From the NCBI GenBank assembly GCA_963555755.3, contig OY820905.2, positions 640,001 to 704,000 of the forward strand: 64,000 nucleotides of DNA. Reading direction: 5' to 3'. This stretch comes from Nitrospirales bacterium (GTDB taxonomy: Bacteria > Nitrospirota > Nitrospiria > Nitrospirales > UBA8639). The translations under genes and the position numbers were made by a program. The first letter of the stretch is position 1. The number at the start of each line of letters is the position of its first letter. Of this stretch, positions 48,383 to 64,000 are shown one piece after another. The notes under the pieces were generated by a model that was not told the DNA's origin, ran no database searches, and worked only from the letters and a program-made list of their open reading frames with translations.

Positions 48383-50035
48383 TTAACGCTTGGCAATTTG
48401 GTCACCAGGACTAGGGACGCCAGGGTAGTAAATCCCAGGAGCAAACATACAAGGATTGATAAAGATTGGACCCGGCGTCTTAATTTTTGGGCCTTTATTA
48501 GGCATTGGTGTTTTAGGTTTTGGTGAATCCTTAGGTGGCCAGGGGCCCTTGTGGTTCTGTGGCTTAATAGTATTCGGACGACGTCCTGGGTCTGCCTTTT
48601 CACCACCACGACTTTTCTTTTTATTTGCTTTGCCTTTTTCATGCTTTGGCACGTTAGCTGGATTCGTATTAGAATTGTGTTCCTTATAGGCTAGTTGTAC
48701 GGGGTTCTGCGTATCCTGTTGAGAACCTTGACCTTGTCCCCCATACCCCAGCCCACTCAGGCCTGTGCCCCCACTACCCTGAGACGTATAGCCGGTATTC
48801 TGTGCATTAGCATTAGCACTGGCTACGGACCACGGTGTGGTCCCCATGGGGTCGGTATAATTGGTAGGATTCCCTAATGCATAGGCATAAAGATTGGTGC
48901 CGCCTTGGAGCCCAATCGGATCAGCCTGCGTGAAGCGTCCCGTCTCCGGATCGTAGTATCTGGCGCGGTAGTACACTAATCCCGTGTCGTCGGGTTCTCT
49001 GCCTGTATATCCATACTGCGGCACGGTGCCGGTTTTGAGGGTGGGGTTGCCCCACGCATCGTAGCGGACTGTGCCTTGCGCTTCCCCTGTTTGGTCCGTC
49101 ACGGCCACGACACTGCCGAGGCCATCTTGATGATAATACTCGATGAGTCCACCGCCGATGCGGATGAGGGGGGTGTCAATCCCTGGGCCATGCACATATC
49201 TGGCGGTCGGCGTGGTTGTCCAGGTGCTGCCATATTCGGCGATGATATCGAGGCCATCGTAGAGGTAATGTCGCTCCGCGCCCCCAACGGTCTTTCTCAC
49301 ACGCCGCCCCAGATCATCGTAGCCATACGTCTCGGTATGCGCCCATGTCTTCTGCGTTTGCGTCACTTGGTCCCACGCGTTGTAGATCATCGAAAGGACT
49401 TCACCTGTGCCTGCCTTGCTCTCCATGTTCCCATTGAGATCATATTGAAAGCTGGAGAGGATAGGGCCGGCCTCCGTCCCTTGCCGAATCGTGGTGAGTT
49501 GATTGGCGGCATCGTAGAGATAGACTTCTGTGGTGCCACCAATGGTGCGACTCGTGCGATTCCTGAGGATGTCGTAGGTGTAATCGTCTTGGGTATTGGT
49601 GATCAAGCCACCCTCATCTTCATCGGTCAAGACTTGCGTCAGGCGATTGAGTTCATCGTACGCATAGGTTGAAGTCGTAACGGTACTACACGAGGGGTCA
49701 TTGTCAATGACCGTTTCCCGGTTGCCCAGTGTATCATAGGTGTAGTTTTGTTGCGCTAAAAGGGTGCCGCCGACCGTGCGATGGTCCACCTGATCAAGCG
49801 TGTTATCGACATTGTAGGTATAGCGCGTGTTGACGCCATTCGGGAGCCATTGTTCAGTAAGCCGTCCGCCGTCATCGTACACAAAGCTCACCAGTTCGCC
49901 TTGTCCGGCCCACAGGCCGTTTAAGCGCCCCACGGCATTGTAGAGATAATCCGTGCGGCTGACTTCGGTGAGACTGGCATCGAGTGCTTTGCGGCTGCGG
50001 ATGCGACCCCCGGGGGTGTAGTCAAACGTCAGGCT
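48383..50035 (-). CDS. 5'-truncated Rhs protein (YD repeats, core, basic toxin tip)
   Basis: YGYTGRE, YYRARYYDPETGRF, DPMG; tip EHNS...KHEKGK...GGEKAD...KGPWPP. Rhs-like frame extends up to the RAYT end. Confidence 0.9.
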   Translation of the reverse strand, partial: SLTFDYTPGGRIRSRKALDASLTEVSRTDYLYNAVGRLNGLWAGQGELVSFVYDDGGRLTEQWLPNGVNTRYTYNVDNTLDQVDHRTVGGTLLAQQNYTYDTLGNRETVIDNDPSCSTVTTSTYAYDELNRLTQVLTDEDEGGLITNTQDDYTYDILRNRTSRTIGGTTEVYLYDAANQLTTIRQGTEAGPILSSFQYDLNGNMESKAGTGEVLSMIYNAWDQVTQTQKTWAHTETYGYDDLGRRVRKTVGGAERHYLYDGLDIIAEYGSTWTTTPTARYVHGPGIDTPLIRIGGGLIEYYHQDGLGSVVAVTDQTGEAQGTVRYDAWGNPTLKTGTVPQYGYTGREPDDTGLVYYRARYYDPETGRFTQADPIGLQGGTNLYAYALGNPTNYTDPMGTTPWSVASANANAQNTGYTSQGSGGTGLSGLGYGGQGQGSQQDTQNPVQLAYKEHNSNTNPANVPKHEKGKANKKKSRGGEKADPGRRPNTIKPQNHKGPWPPKDSPKPKTPMPNKGPKIKTPGPIFINPCMFAPGIYYPGVPSPGDQIAKR

Positions 50036-50138: not shown

Positions 50139-50941
50139 GGTATTGTCAACTTAACCCGCGTTTGGCAGACTGGGCAGCATGACAACCAAAAAGCCCAGCT
50201 GCCAACGCCATCGCTTTCCTTCCGAAATTATCAGTCATGCCGTTTGGCTCTACCATCGATTCTGCCTCAGTTTCCGTGAAGTCGAAGAACTCTTAGCTGA
50301 ACGTGGAGTCACGGTGACTTATGAAACCATTCGCCAGTGGTGTCAGAAATTTGGGCCTACATACGCACGCAAGCTCAAGAAACGACAAGGGCGTCTCGGT
50401 GATACGTGGCACATCGACGAAGTGTTTGTGACCATCCAAGGGGCCCGACACTATCTCTGGCGAGCCGTGGATCAAGACGGCGATACCATTGATATTCTCG
50501 TGCAGTGTCATCGTAACAAAAAAGCGGCGGAACGCTTCTTTCGCCGCTTACTGAAAGGCCAAGGCCGTGAGCCGCGCTGGATGATCACCGACAAACTCAA
50601 AAGCTACGGCGCCGCACACCGGGCCGTCATGCCGACCGTCGAGCATATCAATCGGTCTATGCGAATAACCGAGCGGAAGTGTCGCACGAACCGACCCGGC
50701 AACAAGAGTATCATATGCGAGGATTTTCTTCCTCGACTCAGGCTCAAAGATTTCTCACACTGCACGGACTCACACAGAATCTCTTTCGTCTCAGCCGCCA
50801 CCTGATGCAGGCGGTCAACTATCGGCTCTTACGTACTCAGGCGTTCCAAGTTTGGCAGGAAGCGGTATGCGCGTAAGAGACAATGCCATCGCTCGGCGAG
50901 CGCGTCCCAACTTGGCCGCAGCACCTTAAGTTGACAATACC
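50139..50941 (+). mobile_element. IS6-family element with frameshifted transposase
   Basis: TIR GGTATTGTCAACTTA; WHIDEVF, LWRAVDQDG, ITDKL; frameshift near 50650; no TSD. Confidence 0.93.
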
Positions 50942-51076: not shown

Positions 51077-51400
51077 TCAAACAGACACAAATTCCGCTCT
51101 CTGCTCCTCAATATTTTTTCGAACCCTGTTGGGCAAAGCTTTTTCAGCCATTCGCAAAGCATAGGATGCCTGGAGATTCATCCAGAATTTAGCCGTGTTC
51201 CCAAAAAATTCACTCAACCGGACAGCCGTATCACCCGTAATGCCCCTCTGTCCCTTGATAATGGCCGTGATCCGATTGGGCGGCACTCCTATCGCATTCG
51301 CTAAAGATGCCGCGGTCAACCCTGTATGTTGTAACGGCCTTAAAAATTCTTCTCCCAGAATTTCTCCTGGATGTATCGGCCTCATTTTATTCTTAACCAT
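51077..51400 (-). CDS. higA: HigA antitoxin
   Basis: PIHPGEIL...RGITGDTAVRL...FWMNLQ. Confidence 0.93.
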   Translation of the reverse strand: MVKNKMRPIHPGEILGEEFLRPLQHTGLTAASLANAIGVPPNRITAIIKGQRGITGDTAVRLSEFFGNTAKFWMNLQASYALRMAEKALPNRVRKNIEEQRAEFVSV

Positions 51401-51411
51401 CCTAACCTCTC

Positions 51412-51690
51412 CTAATGATAATCGGTTATTTCCACATCATACGAGCCATCTTTTTTCCACACAAAACACATCCGCCACTGCGCATTAATTCTCATGCTGT
51501 GCTGGCCCTTTCTCTCTCCCCCGAGCCTTTCTAATTTGTTTCCTGGCGGCACCAATAAATCTACCAGTTCTTCGGCGTTGTCTAAAATCTCCAACTTTCG
51601 TTCCGCGGCCTTTTTAAAGCCTGAAAAGGCCTTAACCCGTTCTCCGCCAAAGAATCTTTCCGTACTCCGATTTTTAAAACTTCTTATCAT
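51412..51690 (-). CDS. higB: HigB (RelE/ParE family) toxin
   Basis: MIRSFK...PPGNKLERL...SMRINAQWR...DYH. Confidence 0.93.
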   Translation of the reverse strand: MIRSFKNRSTERFFGGERVKAFSGFKKAAERKLEILDNAEELVDLLVPPGNKLERLGGERKGQHSMRINAQWRMCFVWKKDGSYDVEITDYH

Positions 51691-52774: not shown

Positions 52775-54199
52775 TGTTGTGGTCTAATGGAAATGGACCC
52801 CTCGAAACGCCCGAGGCATACTGCGGGCAAGGAGGTGAAGGATGGCAGGACAAGCGAGAAAAGAGTATACGCCCGAGTGTAAGCGGGAGGCGGTGGCCTT
52901 GGTCACTGAACAGGGGTATACCCTGGTGGGCGCCGCGCGGAATTTGGGAATTACTCGAGACATGCTGCGTCGGTGGAAACGGGAGTTGGGACAGGATGGT
53001 GGGATCGCGTTTCCTGGGAAAGGCCACCAGACGCCGAAGCAAGCGGAGTTACAGCGGATGCAGGAAGAGAATCGCCGGCTCCGGATGGAGCGGGACATTT
53101 TAAAAAAAGCGACGGCCTTCTTCGCGAGCGAATCGCGATGAGATATCAGTGTATCCAGCAGGAGCGGCGAGCCTATCCACCGACGCTGCTGTGTCGGATG
53201 ATGCAAGTCAGTCGGAGTGGCTATTATGCCTTTCTCCAGCGAGCCGAGCCGCCGAAGCCTGTGACAGCCGAGCTGGCGTTGGTGGCCGCAGTCCAACGGA
53301 TTGCTCAAGACACCCATGCCACGTATGGCAGTCGGCGGATGATGCACGAGCTGCAGGCGAGCGGCCACGCTGGGGGACGGTATCGGACCCGCACCCGCAT
53401 GAGGAACGCGCAGGTTCCGGTAAAACGCCGAAGACGGTGGACGACCACCACCCAGAGTCGGCAGGCCCATCCCGTCGCCTCCAATCCCCTGGCGCGCCAG
53501 GTCACGGTGGCTGCTCCCAATCAGGCCTGGGCGGGAGATATTACATATCGTGTGGACCCGGCTGGCTGGTTGTATCTGGCAGTTGTGGTGGATCTGTTTT
53601 CCCGCAAGGTGGTGGGGTGGGCCCTGGAGGCGACGTTGGCCAGTGTGCTGGTGGAAGAGGCCCTGAAGATGGCGGTCGGCCGGCGGCAGCCCCCACCAGG
53701 CCTGCTGCACCATTCGGATCGGGGAAGCCAATAGGCCGGGCACGATTATCACGCGTTGTTACAGACTCATAAGTTTCAGTGTAGCATGAGTCGAAAAGGA
53801 AATTGTTGGGACAATGCGGTGGTGGAAAGGTTTTTGGGCACACTGAAGCAAGAGTGGACGCATGACCGAAGTTTTCTGACACACCAGGAGGCGAAGGCCG
53901 CCGTGATTGAGTACAGTGAGATGTTTTATAACAGCCACCGGCGTCATTCAACACTGGGCTACCTCAGTCCCAATGAGTTTGAAGCCCAGGCCCAGGTTGC
54001 GACAGAGGAAGGTGCTCGGCAACATGGGGGGATCCCGGAGTAGGGGGGATAGAGGAGATCGTTGATTGTGAGGCAACCTGGAAAGAAATTTTTCCCAGCC
54101 GCCAGTGCCAAATCAGACCGGCGGCCCAAATCTAGGAGAAAGGCTTTACGGAGAGCCAAACGGACTTAACCCGGTGTCCGTTTTCATTGAACCACTACA
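52775..54199 (+). mobile_element. IS3-family element (orfA 52842-53141; orfB with an in-frame stop at 53732-53734)
   Basis: TGT...ACA imperfect TIRs; ILKKA with A7G; WAGDITY, DLFSRKVVGW, HSDRGSQ*, CWDNAVVE. Confidence 0.92.
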
Positions 54200-54420
54200 C
54201 CCTGCGCTTTGAGCCGGCCTTGGTCTTCGGGGCCATAGTATTCAAACGTGGTGGTATTCGCATTGGGGTCAGTCACACTGCGCACCCGGCCCACCAGATC
54301 CACTTCGCGTGTCACCGTATGCCCGGCTTGGTCGGTCAGCTTAATGGCATGGTTGTTGGGATCATATTCGGTCTGCAGTTGATGCTGATCCGGATCGGTC
54401 TGCGAGGTGCGATTCATCAA
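54200..54420 (-). pseudogene. Rhs/YD-repeat fragment; another core fragment at ~54730-54810
   Basis: TDPDQHQLQTEYD...VTDPNANTTTFEYY; second fragment YYRVRYYDPEVGRFTQLDPVG. Confidence 0.75.
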
Positions 54421-54848: not shown

Positions 54849-57800
54849 TCAACCAAAGACTTGACCCGTATCGGCTGTGCCGCCTACCGTCACATCGTCG
54901 GTGGCGAAGTCCGCGACCGATTCACTAAAGACCACGGTGAAGTTAATGGAACTGCCATTGGTCGGATCGCTTTGCCCGCCGGCTTGGTCAATCGTGACCG
55001 TGGGGCCGGTGGTATCCGTCGAGAAGGTGACGGTGTTATCCGTGGACGTCGAGGCACTATTGGCATTGCCCACACTATCGGTGGCGATATCCGCGCCAAT
55101 GGTAGCGATGACGAGGCCACCAGTGGTCATGCCTGTGACGGCCACGTTGTAGGTGGTGCCACTGCCGGTGACCGTGCCGGTGGTCGCCCCGGCTGTGCCG
55201 CCTACCGTCACATCGTCGGTGGCGAAGTCCGCGACCGATTCACTAAAGACCACGGTGAAGTTAATGGAACTGCCATTGGTCGGATCGAGTTGGCCCACCG
55301 CTTGGTCAATCGTGACCGTGGGGCCGGTGGTATCCGTCGAGAAGGTGACGGTGTTATCGAGAATGGTGGCGACACTGTTCGGGTTCCCGAGCCCATCGGT
55401 CGCGACGCCAGCCGCAATGTCGAGGACGACCGTTCCCGGGCCCGTCATATCACTGATCGCCACGTTGTAGGTGGTGCCACTGCCGGTGACCGTGCCGGTG
55501 GTCGCCCCGGCTGTGCCGCCTACTGTCACATCGCCGGTGGCGAAGTCCGCGACCGATTCACTAAAGACCACGGTGAAGTTAATGGAACTGCCATTGGTCG
55601 GATCGCTTTGCCCGCCGGCTTGGTCAATCGTGACCGTGGGGCCGGTGGTATCCGTCGAGAAGGTGACGGTGTTATCCGTGGACATCGAGGCACTGTTGGC
55701 ATTGCCCACACTATCGGTGGCGATATCCGCGCCAATGGTAGCGATGACGAGGCCACCAGTGGTCATGCCTGTGACGGCCACGTTGTAGGTGGTGCCACTG
55801 CCGGTGACCGTGCCGGTGGTCGCCCCGGCTGTGCCGCCTACCGTCACATCGTCGGTGGCGAAGTCCGCGACCGATTCACTAAAGACCACGGTGAAGTTAA
55901 TGGAACTGCCATTGGTCGGATCGCTTTGCCCGCCGGCTTGGTCAATCGTGACCGTGGGGCCGGTGGTATCCGTCGAGAAGGTGACGGTGTTATCGAGAAT
56001 GGTGGCGACACTGTTCGGGTTCCCGAGCCCATCGGTCGCGACGCCAGCCGCAATGTCGAGGACGACCGTTCCCGGGCCCGTCATATCACTGATCGCCACG
56101 TTGTAGGTGGTGCCACTGCCGGTGACCGTGCCGGTGGTCGCCCCGGCTGTGCCGCCTAATGTCACATCGTCGGTGGCGAAGTCCGCGACCGATTCACTAA
56201 AGACCACGGTGAAGTTAATGGAACTGCCATTGGTCGGATCGCTTTGCCCGCCGGCTTGGTCAATCGTGACCGTGGGGCCGGTGGTATCCGTCGAGAAGGT
56301 GACGGTGTTATCGAGAATGGTGGCGACACTGTTCGTGCCAGCCGCCGGGCCCGTCATATCACTGGTGCCACTGCCGGTGACCGTGCCGGTGGTCGCCCCG
56401 GCTGTGCCGCCTAATGTCACATCGTCGGTGGCCGGAACTGCCATTGGTCGGATCGCTTTGCCCGCCGGCTTGGTCAATGTGACCGTGGGACCGGTGGTAT
56501 CCGTCGAGAAGGTGACGGTGTTATCCGTGGACGTCGAGGCACTGTTGGCATTGCCCACACTATCGGTGGCGATATCCGCGCCAATGGTAGCGATGACGAG
56601 GCCACCAGTGGTCATGCCTGTGACGGCCACGTTGTAGGTGGTGCCACTGCCGGTGACCGTGCCGGTGGTCGCCCCGGCTGTGCCGCCTACCGTCACATCG
56701 TCGGTGGCGAAGTCCGCGACCGATTCACTAAAGACCACGGTGAAGTTAATGGAACTGCCATTGGTCGGATCGCTTTGCCCGCCGGCTTGGTCAATCGTGA
56801 CCGTGGGGCCGGTGGCGACACTGTTCGGGTTCCCGAGCCCATCGGTCGCGACGCCAGCCGCAATGTCGAGGACGACCGTTCCCGGGCCCGTCATATCACT
56901 GATCGCCACGTTGTAGCCACTGCCGGTGACCGTGCCCTGTGCCGCCTACCGATCGTCGGTGGCGAAGTCCGCGACCGATTCACTAAAGACCACGGTGAAG
57001 TTAATGGAACTGCCATTGGTCGGATCGCTTTGCCCGCCGGCTTGGTCAATCGTGACCGTGGGGCCGGTGGTATCCGGCGCAGTAGTGAAGGTGGCATCAA
57101 CGCTGGTTGCCAAATTGCCGGCGGCATCACTACTCAGAACACGAACGTGATACAGGGTGGAAGCGGTCAGCCCGGAGAGAGACACGCTATGGTTGGTCTC
57201 CAGAGTGCTATCGAGAGGAGTGACGTTACCGTACGCCGTGGTCAGCCCGTATTCTACCTGCGAATCGGCTGGCTCATTGGTGGTCCACGTAATTGTCGCA
57301 GTGGATTGAGTAAGACTTTGGCCAACCACTGGAGAAACCAGCGGAGGCAGCGTATCAGCGGTTGTAGTTGCGCTGGCTGTACCAGAGTAGGAACTGAAGT
57401 TGCCAGCAGCATCGATCGCCCGTACGCGATAGCTATAGCTTGTGTTAGTGAGCAGATCCGTATCGCTCATGGTCGTCCCTAAGGGTGTCGCAATCTGAGC
57501 GAAGTTTGAACAGCTTGCACCTTGGCACTGTTCTATTTCATATCCAGTCACACCAACATTATCATTGGATGCGGTCCAGGTTAGCGTGATTTGCGTACTG
57601 GTGACTATCGAAACCGTCAGCGTTGCTGGAGCCATTGGTGGTGTTGGATCAACAATGAGTGGCGGAGTAAAGCCGCTTAAATTTCCAGCAGCATCGCGAG
57701 CGCGCACTCGGTAGCGGTAGGTTGTATTCGCCATGACTCCAGAATCGCTAAAGGTTGTAGCAGTACTCGAGGTGGTTGCCCCAATTCCGGTAAAGTTGGC

Positions 57801-58445
57801 ACACACTGCGCCTTCACAACGTTCGACGAAATATCCTGTCACTCCAATAAGGTCAGTCGAGGGTGACCATGTTAAGTCAACTTGAGTTGGTGACACCAAC
57901 TGGTAGGCGAAGTTTTGCGGAACCGACGGGGCAGCTGTGTCGATGACTCCCCCTGTTGTCGTATTCACCACGTTAGAATATGGACTCTTTTTTCCGCCGA
58001 GATCTACAGACCGAACACGATAATGATAGAGGGTGCCACCGCTGAGACCGGAATCAAGAAACGTTATGGTCACAACAGATGAGTCAATGACACTAAACGA
58101 TCCATTGCCAATACTTTGCTCGACTTCGTAATGATCGAGCACACCATTTCCAGCCACCCACAGCAACATAATTGTTGTTGAATCCACGACGGTTGCTGAA
58201 AGGTTTAACGGCGTAGGTGGAGTAGGAGGCGGACAGTGATCGACTAAGTATAGGAAACCTTCCGAAGCAGCATGAAGGTTACGGTTCAAATTGAACTTGG
58301 GTTTTTTAGGAGGACACGGATCTGTCGATTTATGCGAAAGATGACCTTTCTCAGCGAAGACATTCGCTTCATGAGAGGAAGCAGATAGCGGGGCAAACGC
58401 AACCGCAATTCCAAGCAAAATGCTAATAATACACTGCTTCCTCAT
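54849..58445 (-). pseudogene. Surface protein with signal peptide, ~4 Fn3-like domains and ~7 Ig-like tandem repeats; frameshifted and 3'-truncated
   Basis: Fn3 motifs YRYRVRARD, YSYRVRAID; 318-bp repeats DTTGPTVTIDQA...FTVVFSESV; the ORF ends inside a junction motif. Confidence 0.85.
54870..57075 (-). repeat. 318-bp tandem repeats alternating between two variants (636-bp super-period)
   Basis: Opposite-strand ORFs recur at 55153, 55471, 55789, 56107. Variants ISDMTGPG and VTGMTTGG alternate. Confidence 0.92.
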
Positions 58446-58881: not shown

Positions 58882-59373
58882 TCATAAAGACCCGATAGTT
58901 AAATCCTTCAGCAAAACTTTTAACTCTGATAAATATGGCGATGAATTTAAAATAAAAAAAACCATAGGCGGTTTATGCTTTATATAATGTTCTGTAGGTT
59001 GAGCTGCATTTAAAGCAAACCATACAACTTCCTTTAACGAATCCTCTATTAGATCCGTTGTTAAAATATGACCATCTTCAGGTTCTTTTATGTTTTGATC
59101 GATTTCCCGTTCAACAATGGTTTCATCCACCCAATCATGCAACCTTTCTCCTCCATTCCCACCGCAAACAAAATAGCAGACCCCTTTATCTAATAACTCG
59201 TTAACAAACAGGTCCAATTCTTGTTCAATAGCCAACTCTTCCTTGGTGGCAAAAATCGTGGCTAGAAAATAGGGTTGGGGAAGATTTAAATCTTCCGGCA
59301 AACTTGAAAATTTTTCCAAAAAGACCAAGAAAAGGTTTTGGCTCACACTTTTCCACACTTCATGAGTTCCCAT
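58882..59373 (-). CDS. Putative immunity protein
   Basis: TAATG coupling to the Rhs stop, acidic, AT-rich; YFVCGG...ERLHDWVDE. Confidence 0.75.
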   Translation of the reverse strand: MGTHEVWKSVSQNLFLVFLEKFSSLPEDLNLPQPYFLATIFATKEELAIEQELDLFVNELLDKGVCYFVCGGNGGERLHDWVDETIVEREIDQNIKEPEDGHILTTDLIEDSLKEVVWFALNAAQPTEHYIKHKPPMVFFILNSSPYLSELKVLLKDLTIGSL

Positions 59374-60890
59374 TATTTTTTATAAACCTGTTGGAGCATA
59401 TTTGTATTAGGTTTATTCGGATAAATTACAAAACCTCCAGCGGAAGCATTGAATACATCTGCGAAGGCAGGATCAATATTAAAACTAAAAGAAGGTTGGG
59501 TATCAGGTACTTCCGGGTTTGAATTATTGAAATCAGATGGTGGGTTGACTGGAGTATCACCAGGCACTGAAAGTATAAGCCCTAATACAATTAGGAACCT
59601 GTTTCCAACACTAAAAAATAAATCGAAAAAACCTTGACCATCCAACGATTTAAGAGAATTGATTTGGTTTTGATAATCATTAATACTGTGAGTCAACCCT
59701 TTGATTCTACCGTCTATTATTGATTGCCTTCGAATCAGGTTATCACCTGCCCTCTGTAAGTGACCTTTATTATCATGTGCATCTGGATTTTTCTTATAAG
59801 CCTTCAATCTTTCAATATGTATATCTCTTATATTACTTAATCCCTTGATCTTATCTAGTTGGTTTCTTGTTAATTTTGAACCCAAACCCAGATATTTACT
59901 TAAGGCATCCAGCGGAGATTGACCTGTGGGATCCCGCAAATTTATGGGGTTATTATTTACATACGCATAAAAGTTCACCCCTTCGCTGAACCCCAACGTA
60001 TCTTCCGTGAGAAACCGGCCTAACCCTGGATCATAATGCCTCGCCCGATAATAATAGAGTCCACTTTCAGTATCCCGCTCCCGACCAGTATAGCGAAGAA
60101 CTGAACAGCTTGCTCCAGCTCCGCCGATTTCATCCCCGAAGGGAGCATACTGGGTTGTTTGGATGGTTGCCCCCTCATGTCCCGAAAGACCCACGACAGA
60201 CTGCAGCGAATCATGCGCATACGTATAATTGGTCCAGACGCCTTGCGGATCGTATTGATACCCATTGACGATTTCATCAATCACGACCCCTCGAAAGAAC
60301 TGTGCTGGTTGATGGCTCCCAGTGACCTTTTCTACATGCTCCCCTTCGAGAAGATAGTCCGCAGCCACCCCAGGCCCTGCCTTACTAATTCGGTAATCCA
60401 TTGGATCGTACGAATAGGTAAAGAGCTCTCCGCCCGTGATCATTTGTGTGATACGGCCTTTGGCATCGGTGCTGTAACTATGTAGTAGAGTGCCTAATCC
60501 ATCCCAACGTTCAGTCATATTTCCATCATCATCATAGCTAAACTGATTTTCCAAGGGTCCGGTTACGCTGCCATCTCGAATTTCCAGCAGACGATTCCCT
60601 TCGTTATAGATGTAGAACTGGGTCGTCGTGTCTACTGTTTGGGTCAGACGATTTCCTACTCCATCGTAGGTGTAGTTATAGGTATTCCCCGCACCTGGAT
60701 AGACGGCATCGGTGAGGCGGTACAGGGGATCGTAGGTAAACGTCGTTGTCCCTTCGCTGCTGCTATTGGTGAGAATGTTGCCGATGCGGTCTCGCGTATA
60801 GCTTTCCTCACCCACCACACTTCCATTCGCATGCTCGGTCGTCAGACTTACCAGCCGGTTATTGTCGTCATAGCCATAGGACGTTGTGGT
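59373..60890 (-). CDS. 5'-truncated Rhs protein with helical toxin tip and conserved terminal peptide
   Basis: RYTGRE, YYRARHYDP, DPTG; tip YKKNPDAHDNKG...IIDGRI; ends GGFVIYPNKPNTNMLQQVYKK. Confidence 0.9.
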   Translation of the reverse strand, partial: TTTSYGYDDNNRLVSLTTEHANGSVVGEESYTRDRIGNILTNSSSEGTTTFTYDPLYRLTDAVYPGAGNTYNYTYDGVGNRLTQTVDTTTQFYIYNEGNRLLEIRDGSVTGPLENQFSYDDDGNMTERWDGLGTLLHSYSTDAKGRITQMITGGELFTYSYDPMDYRISKAGPGVAADYLLEGEHVEKVTGSHQPAQFFRGVVIDEIVNGYQYDPQGVWTNYTYAHDSLQSVVGLSGHEGATIQTTQYAPFGDEIGGAGASCSVLRYTGRERDTESGLYYYRARHYDPGLGRFLTEDTLGFSEGVNFYAYVNNNPINLRDPTGQSPLDALSKYLGLGSKLTRNQLDKIKGLSNIRDIHIERLKAYKKNPDAHDNKGHLQRAGDNLIRRQSIIDGRIKGLTHSINDYQNQINSLKSLDGQGFFDLFFSVGNRFLIVLGLILSVPGDTPVNPPSDFNNSNPEVPDTQPSFSFNIDPAFADVFNASAGGFVIYPNKPNTNMLQQVYKK

Positions 60891-61030
60891 TTTTCTCTCC
60901 TATTCGATTGAAACGAAAATATTTCTATGGAAAGTTTTTTCTTTAAATTACCTTTCGATGAATAAGTACCTTTTCGCCATAACCTTGATCCGAAACGCAT
61001 TCGGTCATTCTGTAATTAAGATGAGCGAAA

Positions 61031-61492
61031 TCACCTAATTTCTTCTTTCAAATAACCTACAAACTTTTCGAATTCTTTTTTCGGACCTGGTAAAAACGTT
61101 CTCATCGTTATCGTAATGTGACAAGGAAATTCCTTTTGTGAAATAAGAATCTGCACTTCATGGAAACATCTATACTTCGTGGTCACTGAAACACTGGTAA
61201 TGGCCCCTCTCTCGACTTTTTGAAAATAGGTTAAATAGGTTTTTCCGATAATCAGAAAACTATTGGTAACAGCGAATTTATATAAAAACGCATTAAATTC
61301 TCGAACAATTTCCTCTTGGACTCTGAATCCCTTAAAACAATTACTCCGCAAACTTCCCACCGGAATAACCATCAGTGGTTTTTCGTTTAACTCTGAAAAT
61401 TTTGGGTGCCCAAGCACAATCCGATTGTATCCCCCAATATAATAATGATCGAAGACAATCAAACAAATCCCAAGAACGAAAATCAGATCCAA
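61031..61492 (-). CDS. Putative immunity protein with N-terminal TM segment
   Basis: AAGGAGGAG RBS, directly downstream of an Rhs gene, AT-rich. Confidence 0.7.
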   Translation of the reverse strand: MDLIFVLGICLIVFDHYYIGGYNRIVLGHPKFSELNEKPLMVIPVGSLRSNCFKGFRVQEEIVREFNAFLYKFAVTNSFLIIGKTYLTYFQKVERGAITSVSVTTKYRCFHEVQILISQKEFPCHITITMRTFLPGPKKEFEKFVGYLKEEIR

Positions 61493-61546
61493 TCTCCAAC
61501 TCCTCCTTTTACAATTTCCTAGGGCTCATCCATCAAAGTTTCTGTT

Positions 61547-63301
61547 TTATTTAGAATATACACTTTGCAACGTATTCACATTGGGTTTATTGGGATACAG
61601 CAGAAACCCACCAGATGCTCCAGAAACTGAGCTGCTAGACGATAGACCGAAAAAATTTTGCACACCTTCTATTGCATTGTTAAATGAGTTAACTGCGTCC
61701 CCTATTACCGTACTCCGAAAAAGCGGGGTGCCTGTTGTTTGAGTTATACCAGCCTCGAAACCAGGAGTACTTCGAGATAAACCGAACTCAGTAAAGAAAG
61801 GTTCGCCGGGCCCGGAGGTGTCCGGGAAAGACACAGCACCACCAACACCTATACCCGATTTACCCGTAAAAGACCCACTCATAGAAACCCCAGGCCCCTC
61901 TAAATTACTTAAAGTTGCATCTTCACTTCCTATGAGGACGTTACCAAAAATACCCAGAGATCCGATCCCTGTACTTTTCCCTAATCCGCGTTCAGTCTGC
62001 AGAACCGCCGAAATTTCTAGGGTATCTATATCAATCGCTAATATAATACTTGCAGCTCCTTTCCCGCCAGGTGCTGTCCTGCCGGGATCGAGAACACCTG
62101 AAACACCCACATTGACCCCGACCGGTTCTAACCCTCTCGGGTCATTAGCATTAATCGGATTATTCCCGACATACGCATAAAAATTTGCATCACCCGCACC
62201 AAATCCTAATGGGTCTTCGGTGATAAACCTTCCGAGCTCAGGATCATAATACCGTGCCCGGTAGTAGTAGAGCCCACTCTCCGCATCTCGTTCCCGCCCC
62301 GTATATCTTAAGACCGAGCAACTGGCGCCTGCGCCATCGATCTCCTCACCGAAAGGGCTATATTGAGTCGTCTGGATCGTCGCACCTTCATGCCCGGAGA
62401 GGCCGACCACCGACTGCAGTGAATCATGTGCATAGGTGTAATTGGTCCAGACGCCCTGCGGATCGTATTGATACCCATTGACGATTTCATCTATCACCAC
62501 GCCACGAAAGAACTGGGCGGGTTGATGACTCCCTGTCACCTTTTCTACATGTTCACCTTCGAGGAGATACTCCGCAGCCACGCCCGGCCCTAATTTACTG
62601 ATGCGATAATCAAAAGGGTCATAGGCATAGGTGAAGGGCTGTCCGCCCGTTGTCATCTGCGTGATACGTCCCTTGGCATCAGTACCATTACTTTGTAGAA
62701 GAGTGCCTAATCCATCCCGACGTTCAGTCATATTTCCATCATCGTCATAGCTAAACTGATTTACCAAGGGTCCGGTTACGCTGCCATCTCGGATTTCCAG
62801 CAGACGATTCCCTTCGTTATAGATGTAGGCTTGGGTGGTTGTGTCTATTGTTTGGGTCAGGCGATTGCCTACTCCATCGTATGTGTAGTTATAGGTATTC
62901 CCCGCCCTTGGATAGACAGCATCGGTGAGGCGGTACAGGGGATCGTAGGTAAACATCGTCGTGCCCTCGCTGGTCGTCACCGTTTGGATATTTCCTACAC
63001 GATCCCGGGCATACGTTTGCTCGCCCACGACACTTCCATTGGCATGCTCGCTCTTTAAACTCACCAAGCGATTGTTGTCATCATAGCCATAGGATGTGGT
63101 GGTCCCATTCGAGAGTATTCGCGTCAGCAACCGGCCTGCGGGGTCATACTGATACCACACTTCGACGTAGTCGGGATTGCGCATGCTAACTAGGCGATTG
63201 GCACTATCGTAACGATAGTCCGTGACCGCACCTTGATAGTCGGTCTTGGTCAGGATATTGCTCATCGGATTTCTCACCATTCTCCTTGTGACATGTGCCA
63301 T
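61547..63301 (-). CDS. 5'-truncated Rhs protein with Gly-rich tip and conserved terminal peptide
   Basis: YD repeats, YYRARYYDPELGRF, DPRG; ends GGFLLYPNKPNVNTLQSVYSK. Confidence 0.9.
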   Translation of the reverse strand: MAHVTRRMVRNPMSNILTKTDYQGAVTDYRYDSANRLVSMRNPDYVEVWYQYDPAGRLLTRILSNGTTTSYGYDDNNRLVSLKSEHANGSVVGEQTYARDRVGNIQTVTTSEGTTMFTYDPLYRLTDAVYPRAGNTYNYTYDGVGNRLTQTIDTTTQAYIYNEGNRLLEIRDGSVTGPLVNQFSYDDDGNMTERRDGLGTLLQSNGTDAKGRITQMTTGGQPFTYAYDPFDYRISKLGPGVAAEYLLEGEHVEKVTGSHQPAQFFRGVVIDEIVNGYQYDPQGVWTNYTYAHDSLQSVVGLSGHEGATIQTTQYSPFGEEIDGAGASCSVLRYTGRERDAESGLYYYRARYYDPELGRFITEDPLGFGAGDANFYAYVGNNPINANDPRGLEPVGVNVGVSGVLDPGRTAPGGKGAASIILAIDIDTLEISAVLQTERGLGKSTGIGSLGIFGNVLIGSEDATLSNLEGPGVSMSGSFTGKSGIGVGGAVSFPDTSGPGEPFFTEFGLSRSTPGFEAGITQTTGTPLFRSTVIGDAVNSFNNAIEGVQNFFGLSSSSSVSGASGGFLLYPNKPNVNTLQSVYSK

Positions 63302-63414
63302 TCCCTGATTGACGCACAGTTACGCATAGTGCACCTCATTAACTCTTCTAAACTCACCAGCCCTAGCTCTTGGGCTTTTTTCATAAAAAAGGTTCCTGAC
63401 ACTTTTTTCTTTCC

Positions 63415-63741
63415 CTATTTCTTCTTTAAAACACTTCCTCCCATGTGTCTGTCAATAAATTCATCACTAACCAGATCCAATTTTTTTATCATTTTTTCCC
63501 ACAGCATTACGCCAAAGCCCACACCAACAGCCGCACCAATGATGAAAAAGAAGAAGGCAATTTTCACATCTATATTACTTACTTCATCCAGAAAAATGGG
63601 ATCCAGTGATCCATGCTTCACTAGAAAAAATAAAGCCCCTATTCCTGTTGCACCCAACATCCCCAAAACGGATATAAACACCACCAATAAAAATGATGCC
63701 AAAAACTTTCGTGTTCGGGAATCCTTCAATCGACCAGGCAT
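63415..63741 (-). CDS. Two-TM putative immunity protein
   Basis: GGAG RBS before ATG 63741, 13 nt after the upstream toxin stop; two hydrophobic helices. Confidence 0.75.
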   Translation of the reverse strand: MPGRLKDSRTRKFLASFLLVVFISVLGMLGATGIGALFFLVKHGSLDPIFLDEVSNIDVKIAFFFFIIGAAVGVGFGVMLWEKMIKKLDLVSDEFIDRHMGGSVLKKK

Positions 63742-63754
63742 ACACTCCAATTTC

Positions 63755-64000
63755 CTATTTCGAATACACCGCTTGTAGCATATTGAGGTTTGGTTTGTTT
63801 GGATATAATAAGAAACCTCCAGCAGCATTGGAGAGACTGGGGCCCTGATCTAAGCGTGGTAGATCAAAATTAAAGCGAGCGTTTGAAAGGGGTCCAGCAA
63901 GTCCTAAGGGTACGACAGGCAAATTGCTGAGCGTATCCCCTACAAACCCTCCTGCTAAATCAAGTCCTGAAGAAAGAACTCCTTGCGCAGTTCCTCCTGC
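63755..64000 (-). CDS. C-terminal end of a further toxin (probably Rhs), partial; absent from the ORF track
   Basis: Open frame AGGTAQGVLSSG...SLSNAAGGFLLYPNKPNLNMLQAVYSK* (TAG 63755-63757). Confidence 0.85.
   Translation of the reverse strand, partial: AGGTAQGVLSSGLDLAGGFVGDTLSNLPVVPLGLAGPLSNARFNFDLPRLDQGPSLSNAAGGFLLYPNKPNLNMLQAVYSK

Follow-up and report, generated by a model that had tools for sequence, protein, structure and literature searches.

The window analysed here is a stretch of 64,000 nucleotides from the genome of a Nitrospirales bacterium (assembly GCA_963555755.3, contig OY820905.2, positions 640,001 to 704,000), and this genome, G000, comprises 4.6 Mb in a 99.4% complete assembly. 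On the minus strand at the end of the window lie three Rhs toxin open reading frames (ORFs), which all close with a conserved C-terminal peptide, hereafter the tail (Table 1). As the initial annotation had described, each of the three peptides runs directly into a stop codon, the tips ahead of them are unrelated, and a different small gene stands behind each toxin. Without the tail, the tips are mutually dissimilar (BLASTP E 0.41 or worse), and domain searches returned no family match for any of them. It is position alone that marks the three downstream genes as likely immunity genes. The ORF that had appeared to run off the window continues beyond the window as an 882-residue stop-to-stop frame with an Rhs core end. 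The core ends of the three cassettes read DPSG, DPRG and DPTG, and both PF05593 and TIGR03696 match the two Rhs ORFs of the window. The cores share 78-80% DNA identity, and the tails have 45-49 of 69 bases in common; between tails 1 and 2, 13 of the 23 codons differ synonymously and four change the residue. A search of the 4.6 Mb allowing up to five mismatches found three tail copies in total, while the six other Rhs core ends located by a pattern search all lack it. The tail was not found in the 40 related genomes searched.

Table 1. Features of the tailed Rhs array and of the partner gene of its relatives. Coordinates are those of the window unless a genome and contig (G000:C1) or a locus (L) is given.
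Feature	Coordinates	Strand	Remarks
Rhs ORF 1, 3' end, Gly-rich 214-aa tip	63755..64000, on to G000:C1:706403	-	882 aa stop to stop
Conserved tail 1 (AAGGFLLYPNKPNLNMLQAVYSK) and stop	63755..63826	-	sequence
IS1380-type transposase, cuts 5' end of Rhs ORF 1	G000:C1:706464-707774		PF13701
Likely immunity gene 1	63415..63741	-	108 aa, two hydrophobic segments; start 63741 behind GGAG
Orphan Rhs cassette 2	61547..63301	-	partial core, DPRG core end, 194-aa tip (61550-62131)
Conserved tail 2 (ASGGFLLYPNKPNVNTLQSVYSK) and stop	61547..61618	-	sequence
Likely immunity gene 2	61031..61492	-	153 aa, N-terminal hydrophobic segment, no Pfam match
Orphan Rhs cassette 3	59373..60899	-	partial core, DPTG core end, 182-aa tip (59376-59921)
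Conserved tail 3 (SAGGFVIYPNKPNTNMLQQVYKK) and stop	59373..59444	-	sequence
Likely immunity gene 3	58882..59373	-	163 aa, DUF7684 (PF24733), acidic; ATG overlaps toxin stop
Upstream partner gene of carriers	L060 227-904, L021 3-728, L024 238-861, seven further loci

The tail spans 23 residues, with the consensus AxGG[FY][VL][LI]YP[NS]KxNxNxxxxVYxK immediately ahead of the stop codon. A DNA pattern restricted to the first 11 motif residues had 114 matches in a species-genome collection. Going by their record titles, these come from Beta-, Gamma- and Alphaproteobacteria, Nitrospinia, Desulfobacterales and other groups; a few of the taxon labels sit on short contigs of metagenome-assembled genomes that are possibly misbinned. 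Among 103 distinct matches, the stop codon falls exactly 10 residues on in 90 and 11 residues on in eight, and the two farthest from the consensus (L067 and L068) look like chance matches. Outside the search pattern, 88 tails are fixed at A-23 (82), N-9 (85), V-4 (84), Y-3 (88) and K-1 (88), counting back from the stop, as strongly as inside it. The initial pattern GGF[LV][LI]YPNKPNxNx[LM]QxVYxK thus describes a general motif, but it is slightly too tight at three sites: across the wider set, -7 is variable ([LM] in the window), -12 is P, S, I or L, and -14 is N or S.

The pairwise proportion of differing non-synonymous sites (pN) was 0.21 and that of synonymous sites (pS) 0.87, or 0.31 and 0.85 outside the search pattern; these values are uncorrected, and pS is saturated. 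The 88 tails end in TGA (32), TAA (32) and TAG (24). Given that pN lies far below pS, that the synonymous sites are saturated and that all three stops are used, selection acts on the peptide and not on a DNA recombination site, as the initial annotation had argued from three copies. A relic at the DNA level, such as a recombination arm or a recent duplication with no function in the protein, might have been suspected, as recombination does exchange cassettes and a 70-base alignment of tails 1 and 3 still gives 74%. The codon data, in which every synonymous codon occurs, refute this explanation, and the spread of the tail over several phyla also speaks against it.

A profile built from 60 tails matched 536 protein clusters at 50% identity, so that the motif is not confined to recent paralogues. 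It is almost always terminal. In the best 150 of the 536 clusters, 143 proteins end at the motif, five one residue later and one two residues later (149 within two residues), and one continues for 88; in a second protein search, all 68 matches, one of which is the window's own, end within four residues of it. Nor is it a named domain in the libraries searched: the 60 tails, compared at E up to 1, had no match in Pfam or NCBIfam beyond single chance ones, and the tail had none in the PDB. The 218 listed matches, many of which are short fragments, included no tailed protein outside the Rhs group, and viral contigs gave a single match, internal and by chance, in a helicase-like protein. We found no description of the motif or of any post-toxin Rhs tail in the literature covered, which excludes most subscription papers and the alignments of Zhang et al. 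2012. The tail is therefore real and widespread, and it appears undescribed, though the class of proteins that carries it is known (Zhang et al. 2012; PMC3482391).

The carriers come in two layouts. In the first, a single protein of 2250-2560 residues comprises a signal-like start, a transglutaminase-like domain, about 650 further residues, the DUF6531 plug, RHS repeats, the tip and the tail; in the second, these parts are divided between a gene for the N-terminal module of about 900 residues and an Rhs gene of about 1560 residues with a signal-like start of its own. The fused or split state changed six times on a quick tree of the N-terminal part, on which row F_P0127 is long and unreliable, and at least four of the changes are forced by well-supported branches. 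Pfam identified PF01841, DUF6531 and RHS in the carriers, and a crude hydropathy rule, in place of SignalP, placed a signal-like start in 93 of 99. Upstream, a partner gene encodes a poorly conserved protein of 200-270 residues that, in the 10 loci aligned, has a signal-like start and LxAIR and PT[LIF] motifs, is mostly helical by pattern and ends in PT[LIF]; it had no Pfam or Atlas match. Two loci bear a squalene-hopene-cyclase-like/TSP3 protein downstream. In one Nitrospinia-labelled locus (L061, 3-8063, G436:C25), the module lies within an open frame of 3870 residues that heads an array of four cassettes, all with tails.

To reverse the search, we used the module alone as the query. Of 132 matches 120 were listed, and 101 of these, the query among them, are longer than 2200 residues; the 19 shorter ones were dropped as truncated. 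The tail scored at least 20 bits in 92 of the 101, was decayed but recognisable in five and was missing from four, one of which (P0147) looks frameshifted just ahead of it. The position that we take to be that of the catalytic Cys in the transglutaminase-like domain is Asp in 100 of the 101, with the His kept in 98 and the Asp in 91. A quick tree built from the last 330 residues of the core, on which the mis-cut row S_L022 was ignored, separates the carriers from five tail-less cores by a branch with support of 97, and the decayed and tail-less members nest inside the carrier side. Each of the 182 tail-bearing ends that have a core motif is closer to references of this clade than to a tail-less sister, and the single Rhs core clade that the initial annotation had proposed to test for is borne out. 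The tail thus marks one clade of transglutaminase-module Rhs toxins, and the carriers are the inactive-transglutaminase Rhs class of Zhang et al. (PMC3482391), as that class is drawn in the parts of the paper available, where peptide binding is proposed for the inactive domain. A search for the module was positive in 31 of the 48 genomes with tails; either orphan arrays are common or assemblies are broken.

Residues that change along with tail decay gave only weak hints, on which we place no weight, the best being the Asn just before the module-cage junction, changed in five of 13 decayed or tail-less rows. We also considered the Asp at the old catalytic site as a clade-specific partner of the terminal Lys and dropped it, since tail-less relatives also have Asp, or else Ala, Ser or Glu.

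The tail follows a wide range of cargoes. Among 107 short tail-bearing relatives, 91 had no Pfam match, and the other 16 matched families including Tox-GHH, WHH, GH-E, Tox-REase-7, Ntox44, alpha/beta hydrolase and domains of unknown function; the second protein search added the peptidase family PF02557. In six nuclease or RNase cases, the toxin domain stops 66-130 residues short of the C-terminus and is followed by a linker and the tail, a layout that sets these toxins apart from other polymorphic Rhs cassettes; Ser, Gly, Ala and Asn are frequent in the 30 residues that precede the tail. Given that it follows unrelated toxin domains that end so far upstream, the tail is independent of the cargo and, as judged from sequence, is not part of the toxin. 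Including the tail, 177 of 182 tips measure 160-250 residues, the narrow range expected for cargo packed in a cage, and the mean net charge of 94 tips without the tail is -6.8. Relatives of tip 2 (window 61619-62131, minus strand) stand behind other cores of the clade (P0082, P0255 and P0318; 35-38% identity), and with these, none of which has a Pfam match, it forms an unnamed candidate toxin family; an Atlas search with tip 2 yielded nothing of use. For tip 3, the protein search found no homologue other than tip 3 itself, and there was one weak plasmid match.

The narrow tip length and the indifference to cargo would suit a passive packing signal, with the tail bound to the inner face of the plug and the cage closing round the cargo during periplasmic folding, without any pulling. 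A plug tether does have a precedent: the N-terminal plug of one Bacillus teneurin-like toxin forms a disulfide with a Cys close to the cargo C-terminus, according to the accessible part of the report (PMC13018210). However, other Rhs cages pack their cargo without the motif, including the six tail-less cores of the window genome and the solved Rhs proteins from type VI secretion systems (T6SS), and packing leaves unexplained why the tail starts like the module-cage junction described below. We consider a purely passive role quite unlikely.

The secretion context was surveyed in 31 carrier genomes, a set enriched for whole operons in which some genomes are incomplete and a divergent GspL may escape the cut-off. 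TssC was found in 13 and not found in 18, and GspL exceeded the cut-off in 17; in two isolates with whole operons, G423 and G429, neither was found. The co-occurrence of secretion genes that the initial annotation had proposed to look for did not emerge: among the TssC and GspL scans, no system is common to all carriers. In the carriers, Pfam detected neither PAAR nor VgrG nor a T6SS adaptor domain; TcA and SpvB/propeller domains likewise went undetected by Pfam, both in carriers and in those neighbours that were scanned. Among the functions first suggested for the tail, a tether or handle, or a plug, is favoured by indirect evidence; a loading tag for the T6SS is disfavoured by the signal-like N-termini and by the 18 genomes in which TssC was not found.

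This survey also bears on whether the tail is read by machinery outside the toxin, either as a signal for outer-membrane export or surface sorting in the producer or as an entry signal to which some target-cell protein binds. Its strictly terminal position, invariant last Lys and rare extensions (143 of the best 150 clusters end exactly there) are those of a C-terminal signal, and GspL is present above the cut-off in 17 genomes. Against this stand the lack of a common secretion system, with neither marker in G423 and G429, and the 218 listed matches without a non-Rhs protein. The tail also has no membrane helix or Cys of the kind typical of sorting signals, and it is borne by cargoes predicted to act in the cytoplasm and in the periplasm alike. 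An outside reader is, to our mind, improbable.

The module also occurs without a Rhs cage, in L116 (14334-18002, minus), L117 (2356-5718, minus), L118 (2550-6020 and 7105-8169, plus), L119 (388-3324, plus) and L120 (7470-10589 and 15037-18132, minus). There it is fused straight to a variable C-terminal cargo (NlpC/P60 in L118), with immunity-like genes downstream and one orphan cassette; these loci look like a polymorphic toxin system without a cage. In L116, L118, L119 and L120, a secreted protein of 2300-3200 residues lies beside the toxin; that of L116, the only one scanned, has alpha/alpha toroid, CARDB and FG-GAP domains. Three of the cage-less toxins end in LFxGFGT[IV]R (L116 near 14334, L118 near 6020 and 8169). 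As two of the three share the NlpC/P60 domain, this motif, possibly a second post-toxin tail, may instead belong to the toxin, and we set it aside.

A second copy of the tail start lies at the junction of module and cage. At the end of the module, a beta-hairpin leads into A-G-G-G-[YW]-V, which lines up in register with A-x-G-G-[FY]-[VL] of the tail. In the 101 proteins, A[GSN]GG[YW]V occurs at the junction of 93, in 81 tails and four times elsewhere, compared with 12 occurrences expected in shuffles. In 16 of 17 distinct stand-alone Rhs subunits, the signal-like stretch, judged by eye, ends directly before GGY[VL]. At the position of the Glu required for N-terminal self-cleavage in T6SS Rhs proteins (PVxxxxGE motif; PMC11461821, as far as the available text goes), all 101 proteins have Asn.

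The shared register could mean that the tail is a cleavable pro-peptide, one activity cutting between A-x and GG[FYW][VL] both at the junction, which would free the cage from the module, and in the tail, which would free the toxin from a 21-residue closing peptide. Stand-alone subunits that begin at GGY[VL] after a signal-like stretch mimic such a cut product, and the cage-less module toxins switch from conserved to variable sequence at xGG. With the usual cleavage Glu replaced by Asn throughout, another cut may be needed, and the His and Asp of a papain-like triad are kept in most carriers (98 and 91 of 101). But the triad lacks its presumed Cys, with Asp in 100 of 101, the neighbourhoods of the loci inspected have no recurrent protease gene, and gene fission at a domain border requires no cleavage. 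Moreover, a cut site does not explain the invariant YP, K, N, N, VY and K that would be left behind it. We regard cleavage as unlikely.

Instead, we favour a tether: the tail would dock the caged cargo by its C-terminus at the module/plug end of the toxin for exit C-terminus first, and we give this reading a probability of about 0.5. Following known Rhs biology, the protein would be exported by Sec, the tip would be packed inside the cage, and self-cleavage would occur at the DPxG core end. In the cage-less relatives, the cargo is joined directly to the module end; in the caged clade, the DPxG cut, which the intact core motif leads us to expect, would sever the toxin from its carrier. Binding of the tail to the module or the plug, at or beside the site that holds the GG[YW]V strand of the junction, would then restore the link, and the cargo would be drawn out by its C-terminus. 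What suggests a re-linking peptide is that the tail begins like the junction strand and is fixed on the far end of the cargo. The direction of exit is borrowed from the Tc toxin, whose cargo leaves the cocoon C-terminus first (10.1101/590430). Tc cargo must also be net positive and has no conserved motif (PMC6868009); since the tips here average -6.8, a dedicated handle would replace that charge rule. As with the other published systems discussed here, these two statements refer to the parts of the sources that were available.

Several observations weigh against the tether. The six-residue, Gly-rich match of tail and junction may be convergent, and xGG closes off the module in tail-less relatives and cage-less module toxins, too. 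The latter have no tail, and neither have two sister transglutaminase-Rhs proteins, one of 2392 residues in L115, with an HNH domain at its end, and one of 1906 residues on plasmid pLM6 of Methylomonas koyamae; if these work, they do so without a tail, and the module has no general need for one. Within the clade itself, four of the 101 members lack the tail and five have a decayed one. Behind the tail-less carrier of the M. koyamae plasmid stands a tail-bearing chimeric cassette, an orphan whose first 538 residues are 55% identical to that carrier and whose end comes from the tail clade. This cassette and the two tail-less sister proteins count against every reading that involves the module. 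The core tree is a quick one with only five outgroup rows. No binding site or partner for the tail was found. AlphaFold2, run on the last 1199 residues and so without the module and the first ~260 residues of the cage, modelled the cage with confidence; the core-plus-tail prediction proposed in the initial annotation succeeded for the cage but not for tip and tail, both below 50 in predicted local distance difference test (pLDDT). On pLM6 itself (L123, 5014-14700), the tail-less gene and the chimeric orphan adjoin conjugation genes and a gene for the exosortase XrtM.

The module model reached a mean pLDDT of 76, with the junction and the start of the plug not resolved. Its first 290 residues match transglutaminase-like folds (3isr, Z 11.1, root-mean-square deviation 3.3, 138 residues aligned), with nothing clear beyond them, and the fold search returned only transglutaminase-like and Rhs matches, with residues beyond ~500 barely covered. 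A complex prediction of module and junction (961 residues) with the tail scored 0.02 against a mark of 0.32, with controls not folded, and carries no weight for or against contact.

A more far-reaching and less likely version of the tether would make the whole assembly an undescribed, T6SS-independent injector, composed of the secreted helical partner, the pseudo-transglutaminase module of ~900 residues, which has no solved homologue beyond its first domain, and the Rhs cage. The 23-residue tail would be a universal handle that swaps with the GG[YW]V junction strand, opens the cage and feeds the cargo out C-terminus first. If so, any protein of ~20 kDa given the tail would be packed and delivered, and the module would also serve the cage-less toxins fused directly behind its terminal xGG.

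The array of the window is itself decapitated by an insertion sequence (IS). Its nearest whole relative, P0081 (85% identity over the core), has 2368 residues, which indicates that ~1500 N-terminal residues are missing, and neither the module nor the upstream partner nor the N-terminal half of the cage was found in the 99.4% complete genome by tblastn and hidden Markov model searches. With its head cut off and no module found in the genome, the array is probably inactive, a silent toxin remnant without a delivery module, although its immunity genes may still be useful. Rhs fragments with a different, tail-less core type lie among IS remnants at 48383-49933 and 54184-54420 (minus) and at G000:C1:685080-685373, and the tips of two of them start with related sequence. 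Next to the array, a protein with FN3 repeats and a signal-like start (56946-58445) ends within a Big_12 repeat that fills the next ORF (54849-56909); together, 54849-58445 (minus) is probably a single large adhesin split by a frameshift or by assembly in tandem repeats. A HigB/HigA-type toxin-antitoxin pair (PF05015, HTH_3; 51077-51690, minus) lies beside an IS6-type transposase fragment (50179-50805).

For T6SS Rhs effectors (PMC11461821) as well as Sec-exported shells (PMC13018210), the available text states that it is unknown how the cage releases its cargo, and cargoes usually have no common sequence and hence nothing to mutate. The 23-residue tail, with its invariant positions, is common to hundreds of otherwise unrelated cargoes, and decayed and tail-less relatives provide natural controls, so that point mutants and reporter fusions could test release directly. 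Given the 91 of 107 short relatives without a Pfam match, the tail also offers a clean marker in the search for new antibacterial toxin domains, and it points to a little-studied delivery module common to caged and cage-less toxins. The tailed Rhs toxins are a variant of a known toxin class, for which the mechanism proposed here is testable.

Short, conserved C-terminal tags are known on RHS proteins in the form of MYXO-CTERM and JDVT-CTERM, which have a membrane helix, a Cys or a basic cluster, and a sorting protease nearby. In contrast to these and to PEP-CTERM, the tail is polar, has neither helix nor Cys nor basic cluster nor a sorting protease nearby, and sits on cargo predicted to be cleaved off. 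The carriers share the DUF6531 plug, the Rhs cage, the DPxG core end and the cassette arrays with T6SS Rhs effectors, as far as the accessible text on Tse15 (PMC11461821) and on the Salmonella and Advenella cores (10.1101/2024.02.26.582050) describes them; in Tse15, the N-terminal domain is proposed to pull the toxin out. The carriers differ from these effectors in having no PAAR or VgrG, a signal-like N-terminus and Asn for the cleavage Glu, and in the 18 of 31 genomes where TssC was not found.

Closer are the Rhs toxins of Zhang et al. (PMC3482391), which, in the portions available, have the same signal-like N-terminus, transglutaminase domain without the Cys, RHS repeats, variable tip, downstream immunity gene and orphan cassettes. 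Those portions mention no conserved peptide after the toxin, whereas the carriers have a linker and the 23-residue tail; the carriers also have a secreted helical partner of 200-270 residues upstream and are often split at GGY[VL]. The window genes depart from that class in that the N-terminal module was not found in their genome.

The B-C cocoon of Tc/ABC toxins, in the accessible accounts, resembles the carriers in its YD-repeat shell, aspartyl self-cleavage of a small variable cargo and limit on cargo size (10.1101/590430; PMC6868009). Unlike Tc cargo, the tips here are net negative on average and bear a fixed tail, and no TcA or SpvB/propeller domain was detected by Pfam. The BiTLP teneurin-like toxins (PMC13018210), as the available part of that study presents them, share with the carriers, as we read the latter, a Sec-type signal, a YD shell and a small polymorphic cargo, and their N-terminal domains differ from the module. 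The tie between cargo and plug is there a single disulfide in one structure, whereas here it would be a non-covalent motif of 23 residues on hundreds of cargoes.

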